A DNA stretch of 53,899 nt, counting the filler, from Stramenopiles sp. TOSAG23-6 (lineage: Eukaryota), in assembly GCA_900128565.1 (NCBI GenBank). It is 3 parts of 3 records of this genome, joined end to end, with 100 filler letters (N's around TTAATTAATTAA, not from the genome) between each part and the next. Parts side by side here need not be neighbours in the genome. Positions count along the whole stretch, not along the records: positions 36,060 to 53,899 come from LT636072.1; 2 more parts are not named here. One strand, given 5' to 3'. Below are positions 17,973 to 53,899 of the stretch, in pieces. Below the pieces are notes generated by a model. It was not told the DNA's origin, did not search any database, and saw only the letters and a list, made by a program, of their open reading frames with translations. A program made the position numbers and the translations under genes. Numbering within the stretch: position 1 is the first letter of the stretch; every line of letters starts with the position of its first letter.

Positions 17973-17973
17973 T

Positions 17974-20469: not shown

Positions 20470-20619
20470 GGATGCATCAATAGAAAGAAACATTATGAAA
20501 TTCATGCTTATTTTTCATTTTCCAACATTATTATATTAATACACAACATTTCAATTCAAATATTGAACACTTATGTAAAATATAATTAATATTTCAAAGT
20601 AATAATATTTAATTTGTTT

Positions 20620-25938: not shown

Positions 25939-25984
25939 CAAAATAAATATTATAAATAAATACATGTAGTTGGTACATATTTTT

Positions 25985-28026: not shown

Positions 28027-28094
28027 TTCTGTGGTTTCAAAAGAATGAAAAAATATGTACCAACTACATGTATTTATTTATAATATTTATTTTG

Positions 28095-30167
28095 TTAAAT
28101 AAATTTAGAAAAAACTTTGTCATTGCCTGTAAATAAAATATTATTTTCTTTTCGATCGATCTTTGGAAAGTAACTACAATCACTCTCACTTTCTAGTAGT
28201 GTTGGTGAGAATGGTGCTTGGTATTTTCTCTCTTGTATACCTTCCCAATTTACACCTGTAAACCAATAGTGTTCAATTAAACTTCTATTTGACATACCAA
28301 TACGTAAACTTGGTACTGGGTGCAATAACTGTTTAATGATATCTCTTGGCTTTTTTGGAAATGACGGATGAAAATTGACAGACACAGAGGAATGAAGAAT
28401 TTTTTTACATATATTTGATGGATTCGTATCGAAGAATGGTGTTTTCCCGACAAATAATTCGTACATGAGACAACCAAGTGCCCAAAAGTCAACAGCCGAA
28501 TCGTGTCCTTTACTGAGCAACATTTCAGGTGCCAAGTATTCAATTGAACCGCATAAAGTTTGAGATTTCTCACCATCTGAAAGCCGACGACAAAAAACAA
28601 AATTTGTCATTCGTAAGTAACCAAAATTATCAAGAAGAAAATTTTCCGGTATAATGTGTCTATATATATATCCTAATTTATGAACCGCTTGTAAAGCGCA
28701 TATAATATTAACTATATACCAACGTACGTAGTTATTTGGAAATCCCATTAAATTCGTTCTTGGAATTAAATTATTGTTTTTTTGATTTCCGTGTCCTCTG
28801 TCTTGTAGAACGGTACTGTATAATAAATCATATAAGTTACCATATTGAACAAAGTCTAAGTATAAATAAAGCGCATATTTATCGACTCCTATACCAAGTA
28901 ATCTAACAACAAATGGACTTTCAATCTTTGATAAAANTGTTTTTTCACGCATTATNTTTGGAAATTGTTTTTTTGAAGCAACTTCTGATTTTTGGAAAGA
29001 TTTTACGACCATAACTTTGTTTGATTGCTTCTGACGAACTAATGTCGTATAGCTCAATTCACCTTCACCAATTACTTTGATTATACTAAAGTCATTTGGT
29101 TTGAAGTGTGGTACTATTATTTTGTTTTGTTTTTCTAAATTCATTTTTGATGACTTCGCTTCACTCTTTTCATCTTGTTTATTTTGTTCATCTTCTTCAC
29201 TTCTTCTTAATGCGGCTCCAGTTGCTTCAGCAACTGCCATTTTATTTGAAGTATCATTTTCTCTCTGTTGTGTCGTTTTTGCAATGATATTTTTTAGAGG
29301 TCCTAATAATTTATTAAATTGTGTCCTATCAAGTACTAGACAAACAGATTTACCTTTGCTTGTACATGTAGCATTTCTTGGTTGATTTTCTAATAGAGAT
29401 CGCTCTCCAAAAAAAGCTCCTTCTGGAAGATCTACTAATTTAACGTATTCTGCACCTGGGCGATTTCTCTTTCTCACTGTAACTTCGCCACTGGTAAGAA
29501 CATAAAATTTGGATCCTTTTGTGCCTTGCACAATAATGTCTTCATTGTTGTCATAACCAACTTCAGTGAATGCTTCAGCTAATCGCGTCAATTGAAATTG
29601 ATTAAGTCCTCCAAGTAAAGGTACATTCCTCAAAAATTCAACGCGACCAATAATGCCTTGGGCCGCAGATAAAGCTATGACTTGACGTAATAAAGTACGC
29701 GAAATTGACCATAAAACACCTTGTTTAGTACACTTGACTGTATTGACGCTTTTACACTCATAAAACAAAGCATTATCACCAAATGTTCCAGGGCCTTTCA
29801 CTTGTTTCTTCACAGATCGTTTGCCTTTTCCTACAACTGATACTTCCCCTCGCTCAAGTACATAGAATGTATCTGCATTATCACCTTGTTTTGTGAGCAG
29901 AGTTCCTGGTTCAATCACCGTTCGCTGCAGCACTTCTATAATGGACTCTATTGCCACTTCATTCAATAGACAAAACAAAAAGTGTTTGGCTAGGGCAGCT
30001 TTAATTGCTAATTTTGTTTTTTCTGTTTTAGAAACTTCATGTATAGAATCACTTAAACCAGAGCTAACATTTACTTTGAAGGAACGTTCCATCACAACTA
30101 TGCGTTTCTGTGGAAGAAAATTTTTCTTTTCTATTCTTTCTCCTTGAGTTTTAGTATTCATAGGCAT
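28095..30167 (-). CDS. Mirror copy of cNMP pseudokinase
   Basis: Reverse complement of 23866-25938. Confidence 0.85.
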   Translation of the reverse strand: MPMNTKTQGERIEKKNFLPQKRIVVMERSFKVNVSSGLSDSIHEVSKTEKTKLAIKAALAKHFLFCLLNEVAIESIIEVLQRTVIEPGTLLTKQGDNADTFYVLERGEVSVVGKGKRSVKKQVKGPGTFGDNALFYECKSVNTVKCTKQGVLWSISRTLLRQVIALSAAQGIIGRVEFLRNVPLLGGLNQFQLTRLAEAFTEVGYDNNEDIIVQGTKGSKFYVLTSGEVTVRKRNRPGAEYVKLVDLPEGAFFGERSLLENQPRNATCTSKGKSVCLVLDRTQFNKLLGPLKNIIAKTTQQRENDTSNKMAVAEATGAALRRSEEDEQNKQDEKSEAKSSKMNLEKQNKIIVPHFKPNDFSIIKVIGEGELSYTTLVRQKQSNKVMVVKSFQKSEVASKKQFPXIMREKTXLSKIESPFVVRLLGIGVDKYALYLYLDFVQYGNLYDLLYSTVLQDRGHGNQKNNNLIPRTNLMGFPNNYVRWYIVNIICALQAVHKLGYIYRHIIPENFLLDNFGYLRMTNFVFCRRLSDGEKSQTLCGSIEYLAPEMLLSKGHDSAVDFWALGCLMYELFVGKTPFFDTNPSNICKKILHSSVSVNFHPSFPKKPRDIIKQLLHPVPSLRIGMSNRSLIEHYWFTGVNWEGIQERKYQAPFSPTLLESESDCSYFPKIDRKENNILFTGNDKVFSKFI

Positions 30168-30593
30168 TTTTCTTAGTCTCTTGATAGATTCTAAATTATT
30201 TCTGTGTCTATCAATGAATGCGCTATTGAACTATTATACTTTGGATTATATTATATATTTGCAAATTGCAAACTATTAGGATTTTGGTGTAAAAAGAATC
30301 CTCTGGTTTTGAAATAGATTCTATCAATCTAATTTTTATTATCTTTATTGTTATTAATTTTTATCAGCTAAACAAATCAAATAACGGATGACGTTTCATG
30401 AATTCCAAAAACACGAAATCTCCGGGGAAAAGGAAAAAAAAGACGTTTCATTTTGCTTTTTTTTTCCAAAATAAACAACATATCCGATCTAAATCTAATC
30501 TTTGTTGTAATTTTCTTGTGAACAAAAATTATAGACACCCTTCGAAAGACACAAATTTCCTTTAAAAACAAGAGTAGAAAAGAAATCAGTTCA

Positions 30594-33413
30594 ATGAGTG
30601 TCGAGTTATTTGTCGATGATGATTTCCCTCCAAGCGAGAGATCGATTGGCAAAGATGCGTTTGGCGAAGATGAAGACGGTGAACCTATAACACATGATAT
30701 AATATGGCTGCGACCCCACGAATTTGGTAAACCTGGTGAGATAACTGAGGATCCTTGCTTGTTTTTCCAGGGAACTGAGGCTGGAGACGTTATTCAAGGT
30801 GAACTAGGGGATTGTTATTTGTTGGGTTCGCTCTCTGTTGTTGCAATGCACCCTCAAGACATTATTGAACATTTATTTCTCGATGACGTTGACGTGTTTG
30901 AAGATACAGGGAAATGTACAATGCGATTCTATAAGAATGGCTCTTGGATATCTGTCATTATTGATACATTAATACCATGTAGCGTAACTACTCGATTGCC
31001 TATTTTTGCGCGAAATAAAGCACCAAATGAGCTATGGGTTGTTTTTTTGGAAAAAGCCTACGCAAAGCTACACGGTTCTTACGCAGCTTTAAATTCTGGT
31101 TCAGTTGCTGAAGCTTTAGTCGATCTATCAGGAGGTGTATCTCAAAAATTGCTTTTTACTGATCCTGCGACAATGGAAAATGCAAAAAATGGTGTTTTAT
31201 GGAAAAAAATGCTTCAGTATGTTGAACAAAATTATTTGCTCTGCACAAGTTATAACATAGCTGGTGCAGAGGTGGAAGAAGAAACTGAGGAATCTGAAGG
31301 TATTTTAGTAAATCATGCATACTCAATACTCTATGCAACTGAAGTGAAAGGTAAAAAATTTATTAAAATACGTAATCCTTGGGGTAAAGGTGAGTGGAAT
31401 GGTGAATGGAGTGACAAATCGAAAGATTGGGAAAAAAATCCTGAAATTGTTGAAGCATTGAAAAATGATGAAAATGCAGATTTCACACTAGAAGAGGACG
31501 GTACATTTTGGATGTTATGGAAAGATTATATTTCTATATATAACAAATTATATATTTGTCGAATCTTTGGGAAGGAGTATAATCAATATCTCGTCCATGG
31601 GAAATGGGAAGGTAAATCAGCTGCTGGTGCTCATATGGAGATTACAAATAGAGGGGAAGGAGAACCAGCACATTTACAGAGTAAATCACCCAAAGCATCA
31701 GATAAACCTAAAATGGGTGGTAAAGTATTTAATAAAACAAAGCGTAAGCCTGTGGGTGTTATTGCTCCTGCTACAAAGGGTAGATGTAAAGGTGGAGCAG
31801 GTTTATCATCTGACCAAGAAAAGAGGGCGGAAGAACATGTTGGTTGGCATCACCGAATGAATGGTGATCCTCAATGGTTTAATAATCCACAATATCGTCT
31901 TACTGTGAGTGATCGAGGTGTGTTTGATATTTTTATAAGTTTATCTCAACATGATCGAAGATTAGGTAGAAAAAAAAGAAAGGAATCAAAACAAAGTGAT
32001 AACCAACATAATGAAAATAATGGAAATCAACAAAATCATGAAAAAAGTGAATTTGGTGACATTTTGGCTGATAATATTTCCATTGACTTTACAGTCATCC
32101 GAAAACCTAAATCATGGTCAACAAGAGTATGGGAAGAAGACGTTGACGACATTGTCACAAAAGCAAGTAGTTCAAATTTTGCATCAAATTTTCCACAGCG
32201 CGAAGTTTCAAAAGGTTCAATTAAGGTAGATAATCGATATGCATACTTTATCATTCCGCATACAAATACTACAGGAATATGCTCAGAATATGTTTTACGA
32301 TTATTTACAAAATCTACAATTAAATTACAACCTATACTGGAGACATATACTCAAATATTTCGTTCTACATGGCAGCAAGGAGGAATGGTGGATACATCAG
32401 GTGGCCCTCTACTTACAAAAGAAGGTCGAAGTAATCGAACTTGGTGTCAAAACCCACAATATGCATTGTTTTTACCCTCATCAAGAAAGGAGGATTCTAC
32501 CACAGTAAAAGTTGTACTTAAAAGACTTGGACCTACAAAATTAAAAAAAGAAACTTTGGGGTTAGTTGTAGTGAAACCAACTGTTGATTTACCAAGCACT
32601 CGACGGAAACGTTTAAAACCTCCCAAAAAGGCTGTTCTTTTATCAACGGGACGTTTACCTCCAACACAGCCAAGTAACTTATCGATGGCACAGTTGCAAG
32701 ACAATTCAAACTCCACTGGAAATTTGCAAATTGATCGAAAATTACAAATTCAACCAGAAGAATGGGCCATTATTTCATATTTTAGTAATGTTGAGAATTC
32801 CTGTACTTTGTTGCGAGAATTATCCACACGATTTTGTGAACGAGGATTAATTGTCTCGCCAATGATGGATGCAGAAGTAGATGGAGATTTTCAATTGGAG
32901 TTTCACAGTGATTTGCCCATTAATGTACGTAAATTGGAAGAATCTAACATGCAAACCATTGGATCCTCATGGACTGAAAATACCGCTGGTGGTTGTCATA
33001 TTAATCCATCTCAGTGGAGAAAAAATCCAAAGTTTGTGCTACAGTTACATGGTGATGCAGGAGAAAAAGTTGATGTCAATATAAATTTATGTAGACCTGA
33101 AAATACGTGGGCGCGATTAACGAAAAGAGATCCGGTAAGCTGCATGATTGGTTTCTACATTTTACCGACTACGAGAAATGCTGTCGATAAAAATCTTGGT
33201 ATAAAATACTCAGAAGATGAAACATTTCAAACTAATTTTGTTCCAATGAGCCAAGTTGCTACACCACTTGGGTTTACAATGGAAATACTTGACCCAGATC
33301 AGTGTTATATTATTGTACCATGCTGCTATGGAACCGGTTGGGTTGGCGATTTTAGTTTATCAGTAGCTGCAGAGTGTGAGTTTTCATTTATGAAGTGGAA
33401 AAGTACTAGATAA
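30594..33413 (+). CDS. Mirror copy of calpain
   Basis: Reverse complement of 20620-23439. Confidence 0.9.
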   Translation: MSVELFVDDDFPPSERSIGKDAFGEDEDGEPITHDIIWLRPHEFGKPGEITEDPCLFFQGTEAGDVIQGELGDCYLLGSLSVVAMHPQDIIEHLFLDDVDVFEDTGKCTMRFYKNGSWISVIIDTLIPCSVTTRLPIFARNKAPNELWVVFLEKAYAKLHGSYAALNSGSVAEALVDLSGGVSQKLLFTDPATMENAKNGVLWKKMLQYVEQNYLLCTSYNIAGAEVEEETEESEGILVNHAYSILYATEVKGKKFIKIRNPWGKGEWNGEWSDKSKDWEKNPEIVEALKNDENADFTLEEDGTFWMLWKDYISIYNKLYICRIFGKEYNQYLVHGKWEGKSAAGAHMEITNRGEGEPAHLQSKSPKASDKPKMGGKVFNKTKRKPVGVIAPATKGRCKGGAGLSSDQEKRAEEHVGWHHRMNGDPQWFNNPQYRLTVSDRGVFDIFISLSQHDRRLGRKKRKESKQSDNQHNENNGNQQNHEKSEFGDILADNISIDFTVIRKPKSWSTRVWEEDVDDIVTKASSSNFASNFPQREVSKGSIKVDNRYAYFIIPHTNTTGICSEYVLRLFTKSTIKLQPILETYTQIFRSTWQQGGMVDTSGGPLLTKEGRSNRTWCQNPQYALFLPSSRKEDSTTVKVVLKRLGPTKLKKETLGLVVVKPTVDLPSTRRKRLKPPKKAVLLSTGRLPPTQPSNLSMAQLQDNSNSTGNLQIDRKLQIQPEEWAIISYFSNVENSCTLLRELSTRFCERGLIVSPMMDAEVDGDFQLEFHSDLPINVRKLEESNMQTIGSSWTENTAGGCHINPSQWRKNPKFVLQLHGDAGEKVDVNINLCRPENTWARLTKRDPVSCMIGFYILPTTRNAVDKNLGIKYSEDETFQTNFVPMSQVATPLGFTMEILDPDQCYIIVPCCYGTGWVGDFSLSVAAECEFSFMKWKSTR

Positions 33414-33639
33414 AAACAAATTAAATATTATTACTTTGAAATATTAATTATATTTTACATAAGTGTTCAATATTTGAATTGAAATGTTGTGTATTAATAT
33501 AATAATGTTGGAAAATGAAAAATAAGCATGAATTTCATAATGTTTCTTTCTATTGATGCATCCAAAAGTATAAGTATTACTTGACACTATAGATTTAAAA
33601 GTATAAGTATTACTTGACACTATAGATTTAAGGTTTTAT

Positions 33640-35409
33640 TTATAATTTCATCATTTCTTTCCAATGAGGACTTAAGTATTGTGGATTCATAGTATTCAAA
33701 AAATGTTTTTGCCAGCGTTGATTGAAATGTTCCAATGCTACATGTATTTTTTTGTGATCTAATTTGGCTTTTGAGATTATTTTGTCGATTACAATTTTTT
33801 CATGTGGAATATAATCTTCATTGATTACTCGAGAATCTAACTGAGATGCGGCTAATAGCTCATCACGACTAACCACGTCACTAGATTTCCTATCAGAAGT
33901 CAACACACCATTATCAAAATAGCTACGAATAATTTGCTTTAATTCAACAATCCGTTGTTCAGGTAATTTATGACTACATTTGAGCAGAGCATTTGCAGCA
34001 CATCGAATCTTTTTTATATTGACATCGACGACTACACGTGAATTTCCATTAGAGTATTTAATACCAAGATCCCTGGCAATAGTCCTCTTCATTCTTTCAT
34101 CTGCTTTTTGACACTTCTCCTGACAAGTTACACACAAAAGTACTATACCATGAGAATCGTGACTCTTCATTTCATGAGGAAAATATTTCCTGTAACTATG
34201 AGGTATTACATAGTGACGTACGTAATTTTTATTGTTACCACAAGTAACACAGCAATTATTTTTTACTGCAGTGAAAAAAGGTGTATTTGCATCTCTACGA
34301 CCTTTGGGTTCAAAAGTGAGGCGGATTACAGTAGCAAGTTTTTTACCATCGTATCCATCTACTTCATTCTCTACAGTAGCCAATCCTCTTTTCATATACC
34401 ACTTCACTTTATCATGGTTAATCATTGCTATCAATTGTCCATCTGGTGCCAACATCCGCACATTATCATATAGTGGAGTGTTGCGTTTAGCAAATGCAGT
34501 ATATCTTTTCCTTCGTTTTCGTTTCAATAATAAACGCTTTTCATTATTATAAATGTTGTTTTGACATTTATGGCTCTTAGATTTGTCATTACGAAGACCA
34601 TCAATTGAAAATGGCTTATCTACTATTGGAATGACAAAGTTTCTGATATTTTCATTTATGTCAACATTTTTCTTTTTGTATGAAATGATAGATAATAATA
34701 AAGTACGAGAAACTATCGCATCTTTGGCTGCATAAATGCTCTGAGACATTGTCAAAGGCCAGTCTTCCCAGTTACTACAACGTAAGGCATTGGCTTTTGA
34801 TATTTCTATCCCAAGTAAGTGACGAGATAAATTGCGAAGACTTAAAGAAAAATTCTGATCTGGACAACAACCCTGACGTACCGCAAGTAATCGTAAGTCA
34901 ACGCAACCAACCACAGAAGTATAGCCCAAGGAAACATGCCTCATGAGTCTTTTTGCATCTTGGAGTACCGCAACACCTGATTTGATGAATTTATTGCTTG
35001 ATAAAATATAGGCCAAAGCTGGAGAGGGAACCGAAAAGTGTGAAATACAAAGTACAAACACATGTGTCTTTGTCGACAACTGAACGACAGCAGGTGGATT
35101 CTTTGGCTTCCCTTTCAAGTTAGGTTTCCACTCGACGTCAAATCCCAACAAAACCCACTCAGCTAAATCAGCTAAAGGCATCACATAACGCATCAAAGCT
35201 GCATCGCAAACGGCAGCTTTATTAATGACGAAACATTTGAGTGACTTACAAGTTGGTGAAAGTGACACCATCATTTTTTTCTGCGTCTTTTGACAGAGCT
35301 GCGCTTGCCGCTTGGAAATTCTTTGCCGACGACCTTGAAACCATGATATAAATAAACACGCTGACAGGACCAGTATCTCTTTAATCTGAGAACTTTGAAG
35401 TGTATTCAT
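33640..35409 (-). CDS. EXD2: Mirror copy of EXD2-like exonuclease
   Basis: Reverse complement of 18624-20393. Confidence 0.9.
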   Translation of the reverse strand: MNTLQSSQIKEILVLSACLFISWFQGRRQRISKRQAQLCQKTQKKMMVSLSPTCKSLKCFVINKAAVCDAALMRYVMPLADLAEWVLLGFDVEWKPNLKGKPKNPPAVVQLSTKTHVFVLCISHFSVPSPALAYILSSNKFIKSGVAVLQDAKRLMRHVSLGYTSVVGCVDLRLLAVRQGCCPDQNFSLSLRNLSRHLLGIEISKANALRCSNWEDWPLTMSQSIYAAKDAIVSRTLLLSIISYKKKNVDINENIRNFVIPIVDKPFSIDGLRNDKSKSHKCQNNIYNNEKRLLLKRKRRKRYTAFAKRNTPLYDNVRMLAPDGQLIAMINHDKVKWYMKRGLATVENEVDGYDGKKLATVIRLTFEPKGRRDANTPFFTAVKNNCCVTCGNNKNYVRHYVIPHSYRKYFPHEMKSHDSHGIVLLCVTCQEKCQKADERMKRTIARDLGIKYSNGNSRVVVDVNIKKIRCAANALLKCSHKLPEQRIVELKQIIRSYFDNGVLTSDRKSSDVVSRDELLAASQLDSRVINEDYIPHEKIVIDKIISKAKLDHKKIHVALEHFNQRWQKHFLNTMNPQYLSPHWKEMMKL

Positions 35410-35959
35410 TTCTAGCTCAAAAATTTATAGCCTTCAAACTACTTTATAACTACAATGGTATACAATGATTATCGCCATATTCCAATGTCTTTCTTGGGAT
35501 CAAGCTGTTTCTTGTGTGTTAGTATACAGTAGCTAATAGCTATTAATACTTGTGTATCACGTGTATCACCACTGAAACCGCTGAAACTATTCGCGATTGC
35601 GATTGCGCAATGCGGATATTGACCAATTTGACCGATTCGATTCACATGAATCATGATGTCGATGTCAGTCATCAGAATGATTCAAGTGCTAAGTGGTGAT
35701 ATAAAAAAATGGAGACTCTGTGATTTCTTATGAAATATTTATAATATATATAAATTTCAAGTTGAGAATTTTTTTGCTTCACTGTTATAACTTAAAAGTA
35801 TTAAAATGTTTATAAAATAGAAATCAATTCATTTTAAATAATAGATAGTATGAAATTCATATTTATTTATTTCAATTTCAATTGAGAGTATAATAAAAAA
35901 TAATTATTTCATCCATTTGTTTTTGTTTGTTTTTGTTTGACGTCTTTTTACACTAAAAA

Positions 35960-36059
35960 NNNNNNNNNNNNNNNNNNNNNNNNNNNNNNNNNNNNNNNNN
36001 NNNTTAATTAATTAANNNNNNNNNNNNNNNNNNNNNNNNNNNNNNNNNNNNNNNNNNNN
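35960..36059. other. Artificial contig-joining spacer
   Basis: N44-TTAATTAATTAA-N44. Confidence 0.97.
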
Positions 36060-36122
36060 TACGAAATTTTGTACCTAACAAATTTTAGTTTTTTTTTTTT
36101 GAAATATTTTTCCACAATATAT
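36060..36122 (+). other. 3' part of a non-canonical family intron at contig start (ends AT)
   Basis: TACGAAATTTTGTACCTAAC...GAAATATTTTTCCACAATATAT|GTA TTA TTT. Confidence 0.75.
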
Positions 36123-37898
36123 GTATTATTTCATGCAGTGATTGCCGAATTAAAATATGTCAAAGAGGGACATCGAGAGAGAGAAAATGCTACGGGTAAA
36201 ACAATATGCGGAGTGTATCTTGATCATGTAATTGCTCATGCAAAGAGGCAACTCAAGGCACATTCCGAAGAATTACTATTGAGACCGTCAGAAAAATGTG
36301 AACAGTCATCACAACTCGCAATGTTCGAAGCGATAAATCCAAAAAGTATCGCAAATTATTTCCGACCTAAACTATATGGTTTGGACCGTAACATTCGAAA
36401 ATGCATTGCTACACCTTCACGCATTAAATTTCTTGGTACTACCCATAGTGATACTTACCGATCAATCAATTTCTGTACGGATGGACGTGTGGGTTTTGGA
36501 TATTATGGGTCAGGTTGGAAGCGCAGAGAATTCAAAGGCTCGTTCTTTTTACGTCACGGAGCTGCAGAACGAGTCATCGAAAATGCAAGTAGCCCTAATC
36601 CCCTCAAGATTGAGGGAAGTAACGATACTGTATATCGTGAAGATCACAATGATAACCTACATCGAAATTTCTTCTACAAAGAAGAGAATGAAGAATGTTT
36701 TGAATCAATGATGAAGGTCAGTGTGCTCGACTCGGCTCTTTTTGGATATCCATCAATCCTCATGGCTAATGGAGATGATAATATGGTTTGGATTGGAGGC
36801 GACGGACGAATAAAAGGATACGATGTCGTAGCGGGTTTAGAGAAGATATCGACAACTTCGCAAGATGGCGATGATGACTCTGGCAATAATGAGGAGGAAC
36901 CAAGTCCTTTGCTTAAGTATGTTTTGGACTATACGAAGGATGCACAGGTTGAGGGATTGCTTTCTGAGGCAGAGCTTGTAGAAAAGCAAAAAGCATTCGA
37001 CAAAAAGTATCCAGAAGAGTATTCCTTTAGAGATTCCGATTGGTTACTTCAAACGAATAATACTATTCATTACCTCAAGGGATGTGTAGTGAAAAGTTGG
37101 TCACTTGATACGATTCAGCAGCATGACGGATCTTTAACGATGATGGACATTCATATGGAAGATGAAGACTTTAAAAAAAACTTTCCAGATACATCAAAAG
37201 TGTATGATGGCCGAAAATGGGTATGGATGGGTTTTGGTGATGAGGATTCTGAAGCAGAAGCTTCTCCAGGCGTCGCGCATACATCGCAAATCTTTCTGGA
37301 AGATTTTGGACGTCCTTGGTCGTGTGGCTATCTCCCAGACAATTCCGGTTTCGTGTTTGTATATGGCGCTGGCCAATCTGAAACATTTGCTGAATCATCA
37401 TTTTCATTGTATGATGCAGAGTTCCGCAAATTTGGATGTCTTGTTGGACATTTAGATTATGACGATGCAAATGTTGTGAAGCGTCCGTATTTTGATAATG
37501 GGAATGAAATTGTTACAAGTGTCCGAAATTGCGTCAAAATATGGGATTTGAGAACCTTGAAGCCGACAATCACTATTCAAATGAAAAACCATGGAGGGTG
37601 TAGCAATGCACTCCCAGTTTCTACCGCTAATGGTGCCCAATATTTATTTACGTCATCCTTTGGAAGACAAGGGACATCCGTTTGGGATCTCCGTATGAAG
37701 CGTGTTTTATATAAGATACCGGCTACAGGAGATCTTTCATGGGATAAAAAATCAATGGTGTTAACTGCCAGTGGTTTGGGGGAAGAAACGCAAGGGACGA
37801 TGTGGGATTTTTCCGTTCCTCCGAAGCAAGAGGAGGATAAATATGTAAAATATCATATTGCAGATTATTGGAAATGTGTTAGAAGTCAAAGACTGTAG
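36123..37898 (+). CDS. WD40-repeat-containing protein (5' truncated)
   Basis: LVGH...CVKIWDLR, TSVWDLR, DGRIKGYD WD-like motifs in a long ORF. Confidence 0.7.
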   Translation, partial: VLFHAVIAELKYVKEGHRERENATGKTICGVYLDHVIAHAKRQLKAHSEELLLRPSEKCEQSSQLAMFEAINPKSIANYFRPKLYGLDRNIRKCIATPSRIKFLGTTHSDTYRSINFCTDGRVGFGYYGSGWKRREFKGSFFLRHGAAERVIENASSPNPLKIEGSNDTVYREDHNDNLHRNFFYKEENEECFESMMKVSVLDSALFGYPSILMANGDDNMVWIGGDGRIKGYDVVAGLEKISTTSQDGDDDSGNNEEEPSPLLKYVLDYTKDAQVEGLLSEAELVEKQKAFDKKYPEEYSFRDSDWLLQTNNTIHYLKGCVVKSWSLDTIQQHDGSLTMMDIHMEDEDFKKNFPDTSKVYDGRKWVWMGFGDEDSEAEASPGVAHTSQIFLEDFGRPWSCGYLPDNSGFVFVYGAGQSETFAESSFSLYDAEFRKFGCLVGHLDYDDANVVKRPYFDNGNEIVTSVRNCVKIWDLRTLKPTITIQMKNHGGCSNALPVSTANGAQYLFTSSFGRQGTSVWDLRMKRVLYKIPATGDLSWDKKSMVLTASGLGEETQGTMWDFSVPPKQEEDKYVKYHIADYWKCVRSQRL

Positions 37899-38422
37899 CT
37901 CAAAGCTGGGCTGGTACCACACGCCGTTATAACATGAAATCAAAAAATGGAATGGCGTTCTATTCGAATATAATGAAATCTGAAAATGTATAATTCTATT
38001 CCATTATAAATCAATTCCAAAAAATCCCATTCATTCCATTATAAATCAATTTTTTTTTGCGTGAAATGCGTTATAATGGAATATAATTTTCTAAAAGTTG
38101 ATAAAATTTTCAAAATTAATAAAAACCTAAAACTAAAATGCTTGATGAAGCAAAGCTATTTTATATGATTCTATTAAGATTAATAGATCGATCTATGCAT
38201 CAAAATCGAATGAAGTTTAAATCTTCAGTATTTCATTATTTGTAAGTTACTTTCTCTTAAAATAACTCGTAGAAAAAACAAACCTGCCAATTAGATATTT
38301 AGATTACAAACGGGTCAAAAAAAAGAAAAAAGCTTGACATCATTTTTTTTCATTTTTTTTCTTAGTCTCTCTTGTGTCGTCTCTTGTTGTTTCTTCTTTC
38401 CATTACAAAGTTCAAAGAAAAC

Positions 38423-39611
38423 ATGCGACGTCGACTTTTGAAAGAGGCAGCGGCTTTATCAGAGCCAACGTATGGGTGTCCATCTCTTCATTTTGGATCA
38501 ATGACTTTTGGTTGGGCACAAGCCTCTTCAAAAGTAGATGATGCAGTAGCTTCAGAAATGTTAGAGCATTTCTCAAAAGCAGGACTTGGCACACATTTTG
38601 ATACAGCTCGCATTTATGCGTCAGGAGAATCAGAAACAATGGCAGGAAGGATTAGACCTAGTGGTCTGTTGGGTGAACAATTTAGAGTGGTAACAAAAGC
38701 ACATCCAAGTCAAAAAGATGGTTTATCAAAGAAAGGGTTGTGTTTTCAACTTGAGAAATCAATGGACGCTCTACAACTAAAGCATATTCCTGTACTTTAT
38801 CTACATCAACCAGATCCTGAAAATCCATTAGAAGAAACATTAGAAGCATTAGAAAGCTTAATTGAAGATGGTGTAATCGGTACTGTAGGTTTAAGTAATT
38901 ATTCTGCTGCAGAGGTAGAAAGGGCAGTTGAATTATGCAATTCACATGGTTGGTATAATGCTTTACCAACTGTCTATCAAGGATTATATTCACCTTTGAA
39001 TAGACGCGTCGAAACTGAATTATTACCAACACTCCGTGCGTATGATGTATCATTCGTTGCATATAACCCATTGGCAGGGGGAATGCTTTCTGGTAAATAT
39101 TTAAAACAGGAAAATGATCAAAACAATGTCCCAAATGTATTTTTTTCATGTACCATGTTTCGATTTTGTTTTAGTACGAAATTTTGTACCTAACAGATTT
39201 TTTTTCAAAAACAAATATTTTCTTACAATACATGGACGTTTCAAAGATAATCCAAATTATTTAGATCGATTTTATAAAAAAGATGTTTTCGCTGCAGTAC
39301 AATTATTACAAGAATCATGCAATAATCAAAACGATGAATTAAGTCTTACACAAGCGTCTTTTTCTTGGATGATGAATCATTCAATGCTTGGTAAAAATGA
39401 TGGCATTTTAATTGGAGCATCAAAAATTGAGCATCTAATTTCAAATTTGAATTGTTGTGAAGCAGCACAACCACTGTCACCTGTAGTTTTGGATGCATTT
39501 GATAAGGCATGGGAAATAACAAAGGAAGATTCATTTCTATATTTTCGTGGTTATTCAAAAGATATGCCACCAGAATTAAGAAACGGAGACGGTGCTACTT
39601 ATCAGGTTTAA
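38423..39611 (+). CDS. Aldo-keto reductase, AKR7A/aflatoxin aldehyde reductase-like, ~363 aa (exons 38423-39136, 39234-39611)
   Basis: FDTARIY, VTKAHP, LYLHQPD, GLSNY, PTVYQGLY, AYNPLAGG, ILIGASK; junction NNVPN-GRFKDNPNYLDRF. Confidence 0.9.
39137..39233 (+). other. Non-canonical family intron, GT...AT, 97 nt
   Basis: CCAAAT|GTATTTTTTT...GTACGAAATTTTGTACCTAAC...AAATATTTTCTTACAATACAT|GGACGT; phase 0. Confidence 0.88.
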
Positions 39612-39780
39612 TTAAATAAATTTATTTTCAATGCATGTAATCATCGTTGTTTATTCTTATTTTATAATTGTATTGTTTATGAAAAATATAAAAATAATTT
39701 ATACACATTTTTTTATTTTTAAGTTCATTTACTCTCAAGACATTTTTAGAAACAATAAAGAAAAAAGACAAAATTTTGTC

Positions 39781-41763
39781 TCACCGGTTTGGACCAACAA
39801 CACTACGAAGAACTTCCGTCGGGCTTTCTTCTATTAAAACGTTCATTGCTTCATCATTAGCTACCACAAGATATCCTGCAAAACCTAAACTATTCGTACC
39901 AATTTTTATATTTTGCTTCTCACAAAATCCTGAAATACGTGGAGCTACAAGCATCCAACGTTTTGTGAAAACTAAGCTGTAGCTCGGGCAACTTAGATCA
40001 CTTGTTCGATCATGGATTATGAAAAAATATTTCAAAAAAAATCGTTAGGTACAAAATTTCGTACGAAAAAAAAATTCAAAATTGAAATGAAAACGTACAA
40101 TTCCTTCATTTGTTGATTGTAAAGTATTTATATACGTATCTTGATTCATTGCATTACTTTTAAACAAAAGCTTTTTATAGTATTTCATTAACATAGCAAC
40201 TGTTGGGAAGCCATTGAATAATACACATGCATGTATTGTGAAAAAATATGTAATTCAAAATGGGTCAAAAAAAATCATTAGGTATGAAATTTCGTATGAA
40301 AAAAAAATAAATTTGAAATTCATGGTGAAAACATACATGCGGAAAGTTAAAACTATCAATCTTAAAAGGAATGCCTTTTTTATATTCATACTTTTTTGCT
40401 GTATTGAACATGCTGAATTCGATTGGAATCTCAATAGGACCGTTCCCACTTACATGAATATTTGTTTTTTCAGATAAAGAACTATACATTGTGAAAAAAT
40501 ATTTTTTTTTTTCGTAAAAAAAAATTGTTAGGTATAAAATGTACTATAAACCAAAAAATTACTATAAAAAAAATCATGATGAAAACATACTTCTCTAAGA
40601 ACCTTTTTCAAAATTCTAATTGGTACAGCTTGCATATGTTTATGTTTTTGAGATGCACCTGACGCAGGGCCTCCATTGAAGTATACCATGTATTGTGTGA
40701 AAAAACACGAAATCACAAAAAATATCGTTAGGTACAAAATTTCGTACGAAAAAAAAATTGAGTTGAAAAAAAAAAAAAAAGATACATGGCATTAACATCT
40801 CGTAATAAAATATGAGCTGCACTAAAGTCGTTTTGATCAAGTAAACTGGACTGCGGTGAAAAATTGCGAGTGACTAAAAGTAGATGCTCATCAAAGTATT
40901 TTGAAAAAATATGTTTATATTTGAAATTCGTTAGTTTATATTTTATGATTTTTTTTTTAAAGTAAAAAGAATAAATTTGAAAAGTTGAAAAAAAAAAACG
41001 GTTTTGTTTTCGTACGAAAAAAAATAAATTAAAAATTAAATTGGACAAAGTACAAGGCAGGAAATTTGTTTAAGAGTAAAACATGAGAACAATTTGGACC
41101 AAATTCTGGATCGATCACTAACCCTGGATCAGGGTCAGCAAATGGATCAAATGATTTTGTAGTTTTTTTTGTAGTTTTTTTTACACCTATTGTTCTGGAT
41201 TTTCTGTAGGCATTGAGAACAACAGAATTTATTTGAGATACAATAAACGAATTGCCTTTTTCATCTACGACTGAAATCGGAGAATGATGAAATTTTGATA
41301 TAGCTCTTGTCCGCTTTGCTCTGATATAACATTCTTTTATACTATTAAGTAGTTTTGTATTGCAATTTCTAACGTTATTATGATACCAGGCAATCATGGC
41401 AATTGCTGAACTTGAAAATAAAATGGTTGAATATCTGCGAGGAATTTTGAATATCGCAACAACAGATAACACAAAAAAAGAGAACAAACCAGTAGATGGC
41501 CATATTTCAACAATGGGTGATGATGACTCTGTTGTAAAATCAGGCGTACCAAAGACGGCTACAACCTTTTGTTTTATGGCAGCTTGTAAAATATCATCTG
41601 AACTATAAAGCTGTTTACCCTCCGAGACAAGACGAGTTCTTTCTCGAGACAACCGAAACCGATCACAGAGCTGCAACCAAGGGTCCGTATTACCATCAAT
41701 AGGAACTTTGCATTCTAGCCCTTTGAAACGTGCACATAATAGAATAGGTTCCAATATTTGCAT
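39781..41763 (-). CDS. Ap4A phosphorylase / ATP adenylyltransferase (Apa1/2-like) with N-terminal extension, ~474 aa (exons 41763-41054, 40893-40786, 40687-40591, 40483-40337, 40230-40099, 40011-39781)
   Basis: Spliced product contains FDPFADPD, LLLNKFPAFDEHLLLVTRNF.PQ..LL...DF, YFNGGPASGASQKHKHMQ (HxHxQ), SYSLVFTKRWMLVAPR, NSLGFAGYLVV; total 1425 nt. Confidence 0.9.
40012..40098 (-). other. Non-canonical family intron, GT...AT, 87 nt
   Basis: GGAATT|GTACGTTTTC...CGTACGAAATTTTGTACCTAAC...TATTTTTTCATAATCCAT|GATCGA; phase 0. Confidence 0.85.
40231..40336 (-). other. Non-canonical family intron, GT...AT, 106 nt
   Basis: CCGCAT|GTATGTTTTC...CATACGAAATTTCATACCTAAT...TATTTTTTCACAATACAT|GCATGT; phase 0. 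Confidence 0.85.
40484..40590 (-). other. Non-canonical family intron, GT...AT, 107 nt
   Basis: AGAGAA|GTATGTTTTC...TATACCTAAC...AATATTTTTTCACAATGTAT|AGTTCT; phase 0. Confidence 0.83.
40688..40785 (-). other. Non-canonical family intron, GT...AT, 98 nt
   Basis: GCCAT|GTATCTTTT...CGTACGAAATTTTGTACCTAAC...CACACAATACAT|GGTATAC; phase 2; yields NAM-VYFNGG. Confidence 0.88.
40894..41053 (-). other. Non-canonical family intron, GT...TT, 160 nt
   Basis: GCCTT|GTACTTTG...CGTACGAAA...AACTAAC...ATATTTTTTCAAAATACTT|TGATGAG; phase 2; yields NKFPAFDEH. Confidence 0.88.
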
Positions 41764-42048
41764 GATTAGAAAGACTATAATATGTAAAGCAGTAGTTGTA
41801 CTACGTGTTTGTTGTACACTTCGTGAGTCGTGACTCGAGAAATGTCAAAATATTAGGGTTGTTCCGGTTCGGGTTGGTCAAAAATCGACACGTCATCAAA
41901 AGTTTCAACAAAACATCACGATCAAACAAACGTCAAACACAATGTCATGTGAACTTGTCATCAAACCAAAAAAAGGAAAGATTGAATATAAGTTTCTTGG
42001 TTGGTTTAATTCAGATAAACTACAGAAATCTTTTTGTAGATTAAACAG

Positions 42049-43173
42049 ATGCTATTTTTCAAAGATTGGAAAATATTTGTGTTACTGCTAGTGATATCAC
42101 AGAAAACTCTATATGTGATATCCAAAGTTGACTGCCCTGAGTTAACGTTTTTCGAAGAGTATAAATCAGGATTAGATCAAGATAACCCCAATAGCCGACA
42201 GGTTGCTGTAGTAATGTTAGACGACCGTTCAATACTTCCCGTGGAAGGTAAATCAAAGTATAGTTTCTGGCAATATGCAATAGCTGTAAATCATGCGTAC
42301 ACTTCGGCGCATGGTTACTATTTTACACTTTTTCGACCACCAAATTCTTCTCAGTGTTCTGAGTCACATGATATCGAGGGAACTGTAGGTGCCAAACCTG
42401 TAACAGTTTCTACTCACTGGAATAAAGCGGCTGCACTTTTAACTGTAATGAGAAATTCCCAACTTAAATGCAATGATATTATTTTATATATTGACTCTGA
42501 TGCTGTTGTGAAGCGACAAGATATTGTACGTTTTATATGAATTTCTAATTTAATTTTTTTTCATACGAAATTTCGTACCTAACATTTTTTGTTGAAATAT
42601 TTTTTCACAATACTTACACCACTGGATTTTTTGCGAAAAGAGCGTAAAAATAATAGTGAACTAGCCAAAGAGTATCCTTGGAATGCGTCTAATATCGACA
42701 ATGCTTCAATTGTGGTAGCTGCAGGAGATAATGGAGATATGGGCGTGTGGATGCCATGGGGGTTCTCTGTTCAATGGGCTAATACAGGGGTGATGCTGCT
42801 ACGTAAATCTCGAGCCACAGAATTACTTCTTGAAGCTTGGCGAGATAGTACCTTTCGGGATGATATGACTTTTTATAGACAAAGATGGCCTTTTGATCAA
42901 GAAGCTTTTAATAGACTAATTTATCCTCCAAATAGAAACATGATTGCATTATTACCTATGGTTTCAATGAATAGTCCAAAAGGTCATTGGATTTCACATA
43001 TTTGGGGAGGTGAACGTGAAAAACGAGAAACTTATCTTAGACAGGCTGCAGAATCGCTTGGTCTGACTGACGATAAACTAAGAAGTACATTAGAAAATAT
43101 TAGTATTCAGCACTCAGAAGTTTTACCGCAGTGGATACCAAACACTCAAGGAAATATATGTAAAAGTAAATAG
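42049..43173 (+). CDS. Glycosyltransferase, GT34/GMA12-MNN10-like, ~344 aa (exons 42049-42525, 42616-43173)
   Basis: Signal peptide; motifs YTSAHGY, HWNK, LYIDSDA (DxD), NTGVMLLR, WPFDQEAF, ISHIWG; junction RQDI-TPLDFL. Confidence 0.82.
42526..42615 (+). other. Non-canonical family intron, GT...TT, 90 nt
   Basis: GATATT|GTACGTTTTA...CATACGAAATTTCGTACCTAAC...GAAATATTTTTTCACAATACTT|ACACCA; phase 0. Confidence 0.87.
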
Positions 43174-43260
43174 TATAAATTCTATGATTCATAATTTATT
43201 GTTTCTTAGTTTTGTTTCTTTTAATCAAGTAACTACAATATTCCACATTGTATTTGACAC

Positions 43261-44298
43261 TTACATCAGCACTAAATAACTTTTTTGAAATTGAATTTGT
43301 TTTTTTTTTCTGNTTACNTTTTNCNTTTTCTGGTTTCTTCTCCTGGGGACCTTTGTTGTACTGCTATTTTGTTGGTTTTGTTGTTGTCGCTTTTGTTGTT
43401 GTCGCTTTTGTTGTTGTTGCTTTTGTTGTTGTTGCTTTTGTTGTTGTTGCTTTTGTTGTTGTTGCCTTTGTTGTTGTTGCTTTTGTTGTTGTTGCCTTTG
43501 TTGTTGTTGCTTTTGTCTTACTGCTAACTCTTTAAGATGCATTTGTCTTGATGCTAACTCTTTAAGAGGATTGGGGGGCTCTTTAAGATGCATTTGTCTT
43601 AATGCTAACTCTTTAAGAGGATTGGGGTGCTCTTTAAGAGGATTGGGGGTCGTTTTTTTAATCGCAGTTTTAAACATTTTGACACCGGCAGCAGTTTTTT
43701 CCGTCAAGATTTCGTTTCTGTATTGTTTTGAATCTGGCGAGAATACTGGTGAATTTTGTGTCTTTCGTTTTAATTGAGTTTCAACAGATATAGGTTGTAA
43801 GGGAATTTCATCAGATTCTTCAAAGGCAGATAGAAAATTATCGAGAAGTAAACTTTCGAAGCCTGTCAGAGGATCACGATTATCAAAGTGCTCCGTCAAG
43901 ATTTCGTTTCCGTATTGTTTTGAATCTGGCGAGAATACTGGTGAATCGTATTGTTTTGAATCTGGGGAGAATACTGGTGAATCGTATTGTTTTGAATCTG
44001 GCGAGAATACTGGTGAATTTAGTGTCTTTTGTTTTAATTGAGTCCCAACAGATATAGGTTGTAAGGGAATTTCATTAATTTCTTCAATTGCAGATAGAAG
44101 ATTATCGAGGAGTAAACTTTGGAAGCCTGTCATGTGGGGGTGACGCTTATGAAAGAGTTCTTTAAAATATGTCATTTGATAATAATAATCGGCCGTAGCT
44201 TTTTGTAATTTGATATCTTCTCTGGAGTTCAACGCTGCAAAAGACTTTTGGAATAAGCCACACATGCATAGAAACAAAAAATACCTTAGGTTTAACAT
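43261..44298 (-). CDS. Secreted repetitive protein with poly(KQQQQ) tail (3' end uncertain because of Ns)
   Basis: Signal peptide MLNLRYFLFLCMCGLFQKSFA; SPVFSPDSKQY x4; duplicated TGF(Q/E)SLLLDN...EIPLQPISV block. Confidence 0.65.
   Translation of the reverse strand: MLNLRYFLFLCMCGLFQKSFAALNSREDIKLQKATADYYYQMTYFKELFHKRHPHMTGFQSLLLDNLLSAIEEINEIPLQPISVGTQLKQKTLNSPVFSPDSKQYDSPVFSPDSKQYDSPVFSPDSKQYGNEILTEHFDNRDPLTGFESLLLDNFLSAFEESDEIPLQPISVETQLKRKTQNSPVFSPDSKQYRNEILTEKTAAGVKMFKTAIKKTTPNPLKEHPNPLKELALRQMHLKEPPNPLKELASRQMHLKELAVRQKQQQQRQQQQKQQQQRQQQQKQQQQKQQQQKQQQQKRQQQKRQQQNQQNSSTTKVPRRRNQKXXXVXRKKKQIQFQKSYLVLM
43377..43515. repeat. 15-bp unit tandem repeat (TTTTGTTGTTGTTGC)n encoding (K/R)QQQQ
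   Basis: About 9 units directly visible. Confidence 0.9.
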
Positions 44299-50434: not shown

Positions 50435-52835
50435 CTAAAAAAGTGCATCCTTTGTTTGTTCGAGATTCGTATCGACAAATAAATCTCTTCCGTGAAGCAT
50501 TATACACAGCGCAGAAACATCGAGGTTTGTGAAAGTCTTTTTCCAGTGCTCACAAAGAGTCTCTATCTTCTGTTGCTCTTTTGGAATGGACCTAAATTTT
50601 TCTAATAGAAGCTGATCAAGTTTCTTCTGCAGCCAGTCTACATATAAAATAGATTCCTTTTTTTCTGATTGCCAGACACATTTTAATAATCTTCTTTCTT
50701 GAACATTAGCACCATGCCAAATCCAGCGTCGGTTTTTGTCGCGGTTACCTTGACATGTAATTTCCTGTGATAAATATTTTTCCAGCGCAAAGCCTCTTTT
50801 TTCAAGTTGGAGTCTATATTTTGGGGAAATATGTTTTACAGTTTGAAAAGCATTAGGTACGAAATTTGGTTAAAAAAAAATAAATTTGAAATGAATGATG
50901 AAAATATACATAATCCTTTGACGTTCTTTCATAGACACTGTAAATTTAGGTCCTGGTGCACTTGGCCAGTATTGAATGCCAGGGACAGCCTTATAAGCTG
51001 ACACTTTTGCCTTAGTTGCGGCATGTGCTGAAGTGACTGCAATAAATGCAGCTAATTTACTCACCGCTGCCGCTTTCGAAGGCCTTCCTCCACCTCGACG
51101 CCTCGCTCTCAGTAAAATACGTTCACGTTGTCGTATTTGATTTACTTGCATTATACATGAATCTAAGTAACTCGATGAGTTATTTCGAAAATTCTTCTTG
51201 AGACGATTCATCTTCTGAGTAGTTTTCGAATTAGACGAATTTTCATTGTTTTTGGTATGTTTAGTCGGTGGGAAAATATCTTCACCCTCGCCAACAAATC
51301 CATGAACTTTTCGAAGATGCTGTAAATACGACACATACACATGTATTTTGGAAAAATATTTCAAAAAACAATTCGTTAGGTACAAAATTTCGTACAAAAA
51401 AATCATACAAAAAAAAAAAATAAAACATTCATGTAATTCTAAATTTCGTATTTCGTTCTTAGAAAAACCAAGCTCATTAAAAAAACCTTTGCTTCCCTTG
51501 ATAATTTTAGATTTTTGTGGATTGTCTTCAAAGTAATGTGAATTTTTCACATTTAACCCAATTTGCGAACTTTTCGAGCAATGAAAACTTTGATTTGACA
51601 AACTGTCTAAAGATGTTTGATCATCAGATATACTAATACTAGAATAATCACTTTTGTTTGTTTTCTTCAATTTCCTCTTATCTCTTAATGCTTTTGTAGC
51701 GTCTCTCATACTACCAAAGTGTTTCGATGAAGCGAGTAGTTTTTGTAACATTTCTTCCATTACATCGCAACGATGACAAGAGTGTAGGTGATAAATTCGC
51801 ATTGATGCGAGCATTTTGAACATTTCTTTATCTCGTTTTTTCTTATCTGCCATTGAAATTTTCCAATTATTCGACGACAAAACATCATCAGACAAAACAT
51901 TTTCTTCCAATCTTTTAGATTGGAATTGTTCTTTTGGTGTAATGCCTGAACTTCTATTTGTACTATTATCATGCTTGTTAGTCTTTCTACATTGAAGAAT
52001 TTTAGGTGCTACAAGTTCAACGCACATTTCNTTACNAATANTTTTTTNGGGATANANTTTCTATCACCTTTCGTTTCCTTGCGTTTTCAGCATCCCGAGG
52101 TAAATCTTTTAATTGTTCCTGTAACTTTCTAAGTTCAATTGCAGCTTCAAGTCTAGTGTGAATAGAATATGCTTTAGATGTCATGTGATAATCAATTGGC
52201 TTGAGGAAAACACCTTGTTGTAGTGCCTTTATTTTAATTAGGTCTTCGGTTGTACTTTCAGAAGATTCTATATTACTCGTAGGGTTAGGGCTTTCAGCTT
52301 TAAAACAAGAGTGGATTTTAATTAAAGTTTTTTCATCATCAACAAAAATTCTATGAGAAATAATCGAACGAGGAGTATTGTTTTGATCATTGGCTTTGAT
52401 AAATCTTTCCATGATAATTGCATTTTTTTTTACGGGCTTCTTTATTTTACATGAATTCGTCCTATATTCCTGATATTTCCTAAATTCACTAAGAAAATGT
52501 ACCGAATCTTTCGTTACTGGAAGAACAACCATATCTCCAGGTTTCAAACGTTTTCGAAGGGATTGAGGAAGAAATCGTTTTGTACTTTTCAGGTAGGCAA
52601 AATAATCTGAAGAGGTATTTTTGTGAGTTTTAACACTTTTGTTTAGTTTCTTTTTAATGTTACTACTACTGGGAGCATATATGCGATATGTGCGTGCTAA
52701 ATGTACACCACTTACACCAGAACTAGTGCGGTTTAAATGGCGAATACCTACTGCTGCTAACTCAATTTGTGCTTGTTGAAGTGTTCCAACGAAAACCTTT
52801 TTCTTCTTCTTTGGCGATGAAGCTAGTTGGGGCAT
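50435..52835 (-). CDS. Large basic hypothetical protein (introns 51341-51430, 50814-50909; N-rich gap ~52031-52056)
   Basis: Last exon 50813-50435 is open (LQLEKRGFALEKY...KDALF*) in the phase set by intron removal. Confidence 0.6.
50814..50909 (-). other. Family intron with canonical ends, GT...AG, 96 nt
   Basis: ATTAT|GTATATTTTC...AAATTTCGTACCTAAT...CATATTTCCCCAAAATATAG|ACTCC; phase 2. Confidence 0.85.
51341..51430 (-). other. Non-canonical family intron, GA...AT, 90 nt (3n, stop-free)
   Basis: TTACAT|GAATGTTTTA...GTACGAAATTTTGTACCTAAC...GAAATATTTTTCCAAAATACAT|GTGTAT. Confidence 0.75.
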
Positions 52836-53844: not shown

Positions 53845-53899
53845 ATGTATTTTGGAAAAATATTTAAAAAAAAAAATCNAAAANAANTGTTAGGTACAA
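53845..53899 (-). other. 3' part of a non-canonical family intron at window end (ends AT)
   Basis: TTGTACCTAAC...AAATATTTTTCCAAAATACAT|ATTTCGT. Confidence 0.75.

Follow-up and report, generated by a model that had tools for sequence, protein, structure and literature searches.

The DNA analyzed here, 53,899 nucleotides (nt) from three contigs of the Stramenopiles sp. TOSAG23-6 assembly (GCA_900128565.1) and referred to below as the window, carries a family of short, related insertions in protein-coding genes. These insertions are probably genuine introns that belong to a single high-copy, introner-like family of a marine stramenopile of the MAST-3 type; they would be removed by the spliceosome in a GT...(A/T)T register and may have multiplied by transposition as DNA, by reverse splicing or in some other way. 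The copies are homologous, restricted to genes and found only in the sense orientation; their exact removal is needed for the host genes to be read through, and most of them cannot be removed as GT-AG introns. An initial annotation of this DNA had described the intron ends as the footprint of an introner-like transposon. The kind of family that it proposed, introner-like and without a 3′ AG, is supported; the copies in the window cannot show that the family spread as a transposon leaving a two-base footprint.

Precise Removal of the Copies

When each of the 14 complete copies in the window (A–C, F–O and Q; Table 1) was excised exactly, the longest upstream and the longest downstream open reading frame (ORF) were joined in frame in all 14 cases, for each of which the chance expectation is 1/3. 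The same was true of a copy outside the window, on the metagenome contig L003.

Comparison with homologous proteins placed the junctions within two of the genes. In the aldo-keto reductase (AKR) gene, which is interrupted by copy F, exon 1 ends in VPN and exon 2 begins with GRFKDNPNYLDRFYK, and the homologues P0002 and P0004 read VPE-GRFKDNPNYLDRFYK. The junction VPN|GRF is collinear with P0002–P0004 (VPE|GRF and similar), and in the alignments of the two exons to PDB AKR7 chains the gap between them is only about two residues wide. The AKR model P0002, which belongs to a relative (78% identical), runs straight through the site of copy F.

The junctions of the Ap4A-phosphorylase-like gene, which contains copies G–K, were checked by pairwise BLASTP of the exons against the homologue P0122 (36% identical). 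At copy K, exon 1 extends to residue 191 of P0122, F192 is matched by the F that the split codon TT|T encodes, and exon 2 continues from residue 193. The junction at copy J is free of gaps: exon 2 ends at residue 227, the split codon AT|G falls at 228 and exon 3 starts from 229. At copy H, where the junction was aligned by eye, the preceding exon 4 ends in NFPH, matching NFPH at residue 285 of P0122. Exon 5 gave no BLASTP alignment to P0122. A full-length sequence of this five-intron gene from the same species was not found in the protein search, which returned only P0121 and the distant P0122.

The borders between exons and elements were also seen in other data. Contigs from the metagenome run X2 span such borders at 39176, 40075–40305, 40310–40512, 40566–40716 and 40988, with a depth at the borders equal to that of the exons, about 5–6. 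P0121, 99% identical and derived from a different assembly, continues past exon 1 into intron K.

Census and Shared Architecture

Copies were located with an nhmmer profile built from family members, and mirror images within the window were counted once. The profile found 14 complete and three truncated unique copies, plus the mirror images, in at least nine genes, with E-values from 3e-21 to 6e-3; copy Q was caught by its 5′ part only, and copy K as two partial hits. All copies named in the initial annotation were present in this independent census at their coordinates, including all seven in 39137–42615. The copy given there at 15380 does exist as sequence, but it is the mirror image of the one at 2594 and not an independent locus. 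Lengths range over 87–209 nt, most copies falling between 87 and 107 nt and the two longer ones measuring 160 nt (K) and 209 nt (Q). None of the 17 copies that the profile detected in the window is antisense or intergenic; this absence is weak evidence, because only about one tenth of the unique DNA, by a rough estimate, is intergenic.

The elements follow a common plan. An exon ending in WT (W = A or T) is followed by the donor GTAYGT and then TTTCA, a T-rich stretch, a central near-palindrome (...CGTACGAAATTTYGTAC...) and the motif ACCTAA(C); the 3′ half consists of a second T-rich stretch, a conserved CACAAT and four further bases, usually ACAT. The alignment has 20 invariant columns, which include G+1, A+3, TACCTAA, and A.AAT near the 3′ end. 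ACCTAAC sits 31–46 nt from the 3′ end of the intron, and the T-rich tract before the acceptor is nearly free of AG. Pairwise identity has a median of 0.61 and ranges from 0.44 to 0.77 (78 pairs from 13 copies, in an alignment that includes 10-nt flanks).

The donor is GT in 13 of the 14 complete copies and GA in copy N. The terminal dinucleotide is AT in ten copies, TT in three and AG in one, and the downstream exon begins with a purine in 13/14 (G in eight and A in five; T in the remaining one). An AT or TT flank precedes the donor in 12 copies, compared with a coding background of 0.195 (P = 2e-7).

Directly 5′ of ACCTAAC there is a palindrome of 14–16 nt (for example, at 42565–42578, and at 406–421 of L003, where it is perfect over 16 nt). 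In RNA folds, this central palindrome forms only a small hairpin, and it could be a protein-binding dyad. RNAalifold gave no consensus base pairs for 13 copies, folds of single copies were weak (−5.4 to −11.8 kcal/mol, z of −0.5 to −2.8), and no Rfam family was matched in the window.

The 3′ Ends and the Splice Register

An ordinary intron in the window served as a comparator. It lies in an EF-hand gene, from 1471 to 1096 on the minus strand, reads AG|GTAAGT...CCTTAG|C, is 376 nt long and in phase 1, and its removal keeps the frame, so that ordinary GT-AG introns are evidently spliced in this organism as well. No other canonical intron was identified in the window, compared with 17 copies of the family. 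The statement in the initial annotation that the introns form a repeated, introner-like family with a non-AG 3′ end held up: the copies are homologous, sense-oriented and precisely removable, and they are unlike this GTAAGT...TTAG intron.

When the conserved donor was retained, a search from −60 to +45 nt found no in-frame, stop-free AG acceptor in copies A, C, F, G, H, J and K, and one over ±60 nt gave none in copy Q; copy C had no in-frame GT/GC-AG alternative in the tested range. Copy N fell outside this test because its donor is GA. Copies B, I, L, M and O each have one or two such AG acceptors, which would delete or add codons, with the exception of copy M's own end. An in-frame canonical GT/GC-AG solution at a constant relative position across the copies was not found, and no slide of the borders by 2 nt renders most copies canonical. 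At copy F, the direct repeat ATG permits four registers (AT..AC, TG..CA, GT..AT and TA..TG), and none of the four is canonical. The AG of copy M falls in the same register as the AT and TT ends of the other copies.

We propose that the spliceosome would remove the elements in the register GT...(A/T)T by means of signals that the elements themselves appear to carry, namely, the donor GTAYGT, the branch-site-like ACCTAA(C) 31–46 nt from the 3′ end and the T-rich tract. The acceptor would be fixed 4 nt after CACAAT, with T instead of G as the last intron base in 13/14 copies. The flanking bases, WT on the donor side and a purine on the acceptor side, are best explained by a preference for insertion into, or survival at, WT|R sites, together with ends that are specific to subfamilies. 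The ambiguity of the WT flank would then parallel AG|GT...AG|G in ordinary introns, and it is not a demonstrated target-site duplication.

A more far-reaching version of this proposal, which we put forward tentatively, is that the whole introner family might use a second, AG-independent acceptor code, in which the cut falls 4 nt after CACAAT at a T end (GT-AT or GT-TT) and which was possibly seeded by a 2-bp WT duplication.

RNA Data and Copies Elsewhere

Reads from two RNA runs (X8 and X9) and two DNA runs were compared on positions 36060–43312 (7.25 kb). The depth of X8 and X9 on exons was 2–5, and RNA contigs break at the repeat. The numbers of contigs placed on the 7.25 kb were 6163 for X2, 986 for X8 and 441 for X7, almost all of them on bins that contain elements. 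The depth of X2 was 463–43,207 in element-bearing bins and 0–9 in element-free ones, values that are sums over organisms and not a copy number.

In metagenome contigs, a pattern of the 19-nt core matched at four loci, with a full element only at L003. This copy (362–465, minus strand) reads AT|GTATGT...ATACAT|GG, is in frame and is flanked by exons that are more GC-rich; about 100 nt downstream of it there is an ordinary AAG|GTAAGT donor. L003 belongs to a separate metagenome assembly, so that the family occurs in more than a single assembly. A match in a bacterial metagenome-assembled genome, found in a scan of genome contigs, was limited to the core and was taken as a chance match. No viral contig matched the 19-nt core pattern, and a protein search with the ORF that reads through copy J gave no candidate.

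Several observations weigh against the interpretation of the copies as mobile introns spliced in the GT...(A/T)T register. Among the joints listed (15 of 192), there was no spliced joint that skips exactly one element, and one X8 contig (42586–42819) retains the last 30 nt of intron L. Because no spliced RNA junction was seen, both removal at the RNA level and the exact register are inferred from the DNA. A joint slide of both borders alters one codon only, and homology cannot exclude such a slide at A, G, I, M and Q, where flank and end are unlike and encode different residues; at copy C, both registers encode the same residue. An intron end in T rather than G is not known to serve as an efficient acceptor for introns that begin with G. 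Beyond the window, only one further full copy was found (L003), and the copies have diverged (median identity 0.61), so that they do not show recent mobility.

Tests for a Transposon Footprint

The initial annotation had attributed the intron ends to a miniature inverted-repeat transposable element (MITE) with GTAY...ATAC termini, which would insert at WT with a 2-bp duplication, the 3′ duplicate becoming the non-AG acceptor. We consider this explanation unlikely; the mechanism is unproven, not refuted. Its tallies of the 5′ flanks (seven AT, five TT, one CT and one AA) and its count of eight copies in which the flank equals the terminal dinucleotide were exactly reproduced, and both TT-TT cases match. 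In copies H, J, N and L003, CAT|G is found at both junctions, as would be expected if a palindromic CATG target were cut with a stagger of 2 nt. There is also precedent: non-AG acceptors derived from duplications have been described in Fritillaria borealis, and splice sites of the same derivation in introners, including those of Micromonas.

The agreement between flanks and ends was compared with 100,000 random re-pairings of 5′ flanks and 3′ ends of the 14 copies. The observed 8/14 compares with 6.07 expected (P(≥8) = 0.17), and the locus-specific duplication claimed earlier is thus not beyond chance in the window. Position −2, the sole informative one, matched in ten copies with 7.36 expected (P = 0.055); positions −3 and −4 were at chance, and a duplication of 3, 4 or more nt did no better than random. 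Moreover, the flank follows the subfamily of the element. The five copies that begin with GTAC have TT or CT flanks; among the remaining nine, position −2 is A in eight (Fisher P = 0.003, post hoc). TT ends occur in three of the five GTAC copies and in none of the other nine (Fisher P = 0.027, post hoc). The apparent match at each locus is therefore largely a match between subfamilies. The test of a 2-bp duplication is low-powered, because old copies would have partly eroded the duplication.

The termini provide little material for an inverted repeat. The initial annotation had pointed to a 7-nt inverted match between 39135–39141 and 39227–39233, which is indeed present, but the part intrinsic to the intron, GTA(T)/(A)TAC, is only 3–4 nt long, and the sense strand is rich in T in both halves of the element. 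The 6–7-nt version needs self-complementary AT flanks, and the perfect form ATGTAT/ATACAT is found in 4/14 copies (F, H, J and O). None of the copies in the window has a terminal inverted repeat of at least 6 nt inside the element. In the introner surveys (Gozashti et al. 2022, PMC9860276; 2025, PMC12130899), inverted repeats of at least 6 nt are required, and duplication versus insertion-site consensus is treated as “ambiguous”. A scan of 26 translated stretches from about 21 ORFs revealed no Pfam domain of a transposase, integrase or reverse transcriptase, a weak negative that covers the window only. Together with the lack of antisense or intergenic copies, these observations speak against the MITE-like element that had been proposed. 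A TA duplication of the Tc1/mariner-like kind and TG...CA termini, both considered by eye, were dropped, as they fail in the GTAC subfamily.

Alternative Register and Alternative Origins

If the borders were placed 2 nt upstream (NT GTAY...AC), the elements could be read as AT-AC introns, either U12-like or spliced by an AT-AC-tolerant major spliceosome. We regard this as quite improbable. A as the first and C as the last base form a known compatible terminal pair, and the donor GTATGTTTT matches the U12 GT-type consensus at 7/9 positions. The slide to AT...AC that the initial annotation had allowed in six copies is confirmed; across all 14, the upstream register starts with AT in seven copies, TT in five, CT in one and AA in one, and ends with AC in eight, AA in two, and GC, CC, GT and AT in one each, so that AT-AC is obtained in 6/14. 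These ends are heterogeneous, copy M would lose its AG, and AT-AC pairs are uninformative, because they are too frequent in this AT-rich DNA. GT...WT is the more uniform register, in agreement with the earlier preference for GT-AT.

U12-type AT-AC introns resemble the family in being non-GT-AG in one register, in their long conserved donor and, partly, in the internal motif. The U12 donor consensus is RTATCCTT, and the U12 branch motif TCCTTAAC lies about 10–26 nt from the 3′ end. The family, by comparison, has the donor consensus GTATGTTT or GTACGTTT, and its only branch-like motif is located 31–46 nt from the 3′ end. No copy has CC at +5/+6, so that the family lacks the key CC that marks U12 donors, which bears out the earlier remark that the 5′ end is not of the U12 type.

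A different possibility is that the elements were never mobile and represent an old class of introns, their likeness amounting to unusually long shared splicing signals. The identity of 44–77% would suit such an origin, as would the location of the best-conserved blocks (the donor, ACCTAA and the 3′ CACAAT) at the sites where signals are expected. Conservation, however, reaches the central 14–16-nt palindrome and the T runs, which no known signal needs. In addition, the core occurs in thousands of contigs, five copies are found in about 1 kb compared with none in a neighboring 10 kb, and the AKR model P0002 reads through the site of copy F. Taken together, we find an old, immobile class hardly probable.

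Least credible of all is that the elements are not introns, but somatically eliminated DNA like the internal eliminated sequences (IESs) of ciliates, artifacts of amplification or assembly, or insertions in dead genes: the short direct repeats and short inverted ends do resemble IES borders, and the assembly contains chimeric palindromes, but TAA is a stop codon in the AKR gene, the X2 metagenome has the elements at the same loci at exon depth, the frame is kept in 14/14 copies and the host genes are conserved.

Comparison with Known Intron Families

The preferred interpretation, a family of introner-like introns spliced as GT...(A/T)T, has partial parallels. Fungal introner-like elements, as described, share with the present family a length of about 100 nt, a restriction to genes and the sense orientation, the lack of a convincing duplication or inverted repeat, and internal signals; they are gene-biased, and reverse splicing has been proposed for them. 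They differ in using canonical GT-AG borders and in their hosts, the host here being a stramenopile. High predicted RNA stability is a property of the fungal elements that this family, with z of −0.5 to −2.8, does not have.

The introners of Micromonas, Aureococcus, fungi and dinoflagellates likewise consist of many similar short introns in unrelated genes with their own splice signals. Further similarities to described introners are that removal keeps the length of the mRNA, that the host is an aquatic protist and that a GA donor is rare (here 1/14). Unlike those introners, which were compared by description only, 13/14 copies here are without a 3′ AG, and there is no clear duplication, no inverted repeat of at least 6 nt and a median identity of only 0.61. 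As judged from sequence, it is the uniform non-AG acceptor that sets the family apart from described introners.

Introns of Fritillaria borealis (PMC11282704) have a non-AG acceptor (AC or AT) and form a large, lineage-specific class, for which an acceptor derived from a duplicated target has been proposed. They begin with AG and have both inverted repeats and duplications, whereas the donor here is GTAYGT and inverted repeats are negligible. The introners of Amoebophrya (Farhat et al. 2021, PMC7789003) are repeated introns of a marine protist, with borders that can slide by virtue of direct repeats and with no nearby transposase, all of which is shared here. Their inverted repeats of 8–20 nt form a hairpin and their ends are highly variable, whereas the present family has no predicted structure and a uniform GT...WT. 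Compared with the non-canonical introns described in Fritillaria, Amoebophrya and euglenids, the family is distinguished by an ordinary donor and by the lack of inverted repeats and of a hairpin.

No description of the family was found in the literature searched, including the main texts of three papers on these stramenopiles, in which “non-canonical” is absent and “splice” occurs only in the title of a reference. The supplements of the introner surveys, in the parts available, contain no relevant match for MAST or Incisomonas.

Positions of the Copies and Structure of the Window

Table 1. Copies of the intron family in the window. Bars mark exon–intron borders; positions count along the whole window.
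Copy	Position	Strand	Length (nt)	Junctions	Phase	Host gene and remarks
A	2495–2594	−	100	TT|GTACGT...ATAAAT|GC	2	Mirror image 15380–15479 (+)
Q	2750–2958	−	209	TT|GTATGT...TTAAAT|GC	0	Mirror image 15016–15224 (+)
B	4217–4319	−	103	AT|GTAAAG...ATACAT|GC	2	Mirror image 13655–13757 (+)
C	7545–7640	+	96	CT|GTACGT...ATGCTT|AC	2	Last intron of O-fucosyltransferase-like gene; mirror image 10334–10429 (−)
D	8887–8987	−		...ACAATCCAT|CC		3′ part only; 5′ part lost at center of palindrome 1
E	36060–36122	+		...CACAATATAT|GT		3′ part only; cut by N linker 35960–36059
F	39137–39233	+	97	AT|GTATTT...ATACAT|GG	0	AKR gene (exons 38423–39136, 39234–39608)
G	40012–40098	−	87	TT|GTACGT...ATCCAT|GA	0	Last intron of Ap4A-phosphorylase-like gene; flank/end mismatch
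H	40231–40336	−	106	AT|GTATGT...ATACAT|GC	0	Ap4A-phosphorylase-like gene
I	40484–40590	−	107	AA|GTATGT...ATGTAT|AG	0	Ap4A-phosphorylase-like gene; flank/end mismatch
J	40688–40785	−	98	AT|GTATCT...ATACAT|GG	2	Ap4A-phosphorylase-like gene; split codon AT|G
K	40894–41053	−	160	TT|GTACTT...ATACTT|TG	2	Ap4A-phosphorylase-like gene; split codon TT|T (F); diverged
L	42526–42615	+	90	TT|GTACGT...ATACTT|AC	0	Nucleotide-sugar transferase-like gene (42049–43170)
M	50814–50909	−	96	AT|GTATAT...ATATAG|AC	2	Sole copy ending in AG
N	51341–51430	−	90	AT|GAATGT...ATACAT|GT	0	GA donor; 6-nt direct repeat TACATG at both junctions; open in frame
O	53617–53710	−	94	AT|GTATGT...ATACAT|AC	1	
P	53845–53899	−		...AAAATACAT|AT		3′ part only; cut by window end

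The copies are clumped: five of them lie within about 1 kb, in the 3′ half of the Ap4A-phosphorylase-like gene (39784–41763, minus strand), where the exons between them measure 97–147 nt. No copy of the family was found in the 10-kb contig part 18074–28037, which contains four long genes (for calpain, a kinase, an exonuclease-domain protein and Hsp70). The length of copy Q is accounted for by three tandem 29-nt units of the 5′ part of the element (2862–2952, minus strand); this copy is without the ACCTAAC core.

The window consists of three contigs joined by N44-TTAATTAATTAA-N44 linkers at 17974–18073 and 35960–36059, and it contains two perfect palindromes. In the first, 1–8959 is the reverse complement of 9015–17973 (arms of 8959 nt around a 55-nt center); in the second, 17974–25995 is the reverse complement of 28038–36059 (arms of 8022 nt around a 2042-nt center). 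Both look like whole-genome-amplification chimeras plus artificial concatenation. About one third of the window is duplicate sequence, and each intron copy below 17974 was counted once, because the palindrome repeats every such copy.

The DNA is AT-rich, with a GC content of 0.24–0.38 per 2 kb across the window. Genes are dense and lie on both strands, ORFs of at least 100 amino acids covering 84% of the 36,891 unique bases. The domains encoded include AKR, Ap4A-phosphorylase-like, calpain, cNMP-dependent kinase, Hsp70, EF-hand and pseudouridine synthase. Judged by this gene content, the DNA is plainly eukaryotic. The host is probably a MAST-3-type marine stramenopile, to which the source label of P0001, the closest named protein, points; seawater metagenomes and small DNA runs of one coded organism also contain this stretch. 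Long in-frame tandem repeats of 15 nt and 3 nt are present at 43339–43546 and 1–577, where they encode K/Q-rich and poly-Q tracts. Single N bases within homopolymer runs suggest that the assembly of A/T runs is uncertain.

Consequences for Annotation

The effect of such introns on gene models can be seen in the AKR gene. The public model P0001, which is identical to the AKR exons in the window, uses a false GT-AG intron at 39093–39174; as a result, 15 conserved residues are missing from the model, and the remainder of the element appears in it as the protein sequence VRNFVPNRFFFKNKYFLTIH (20 residues). Wherever the family occurs, it has probably impaired the proteomes and gene counts obtained from assemblies of this kind.

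A paper on such genomes described small numbers of predicted genes and, for the dynein genes of a MAST-3 lineage, “advanced pseudogenization”. Unrecognized members of this intron family might have played a part in the low gene numbers as well as in the calls of dynein pseudogenes. If the AG-independent acceptor code is true, thousands of introns would be invisible to gene finders that rely on GT-AG, public gene counts for uncultured stramenopiles would be distorted, and some “pseudogene” calls would perhaps be distorted too.

Bursts of intron gain are at present best explained by introners. Families that are non-canonical at one end only are rare, and they bear on the flexibility of the 3′ splice site and on whether the footprint of an insertion can become a splice site.

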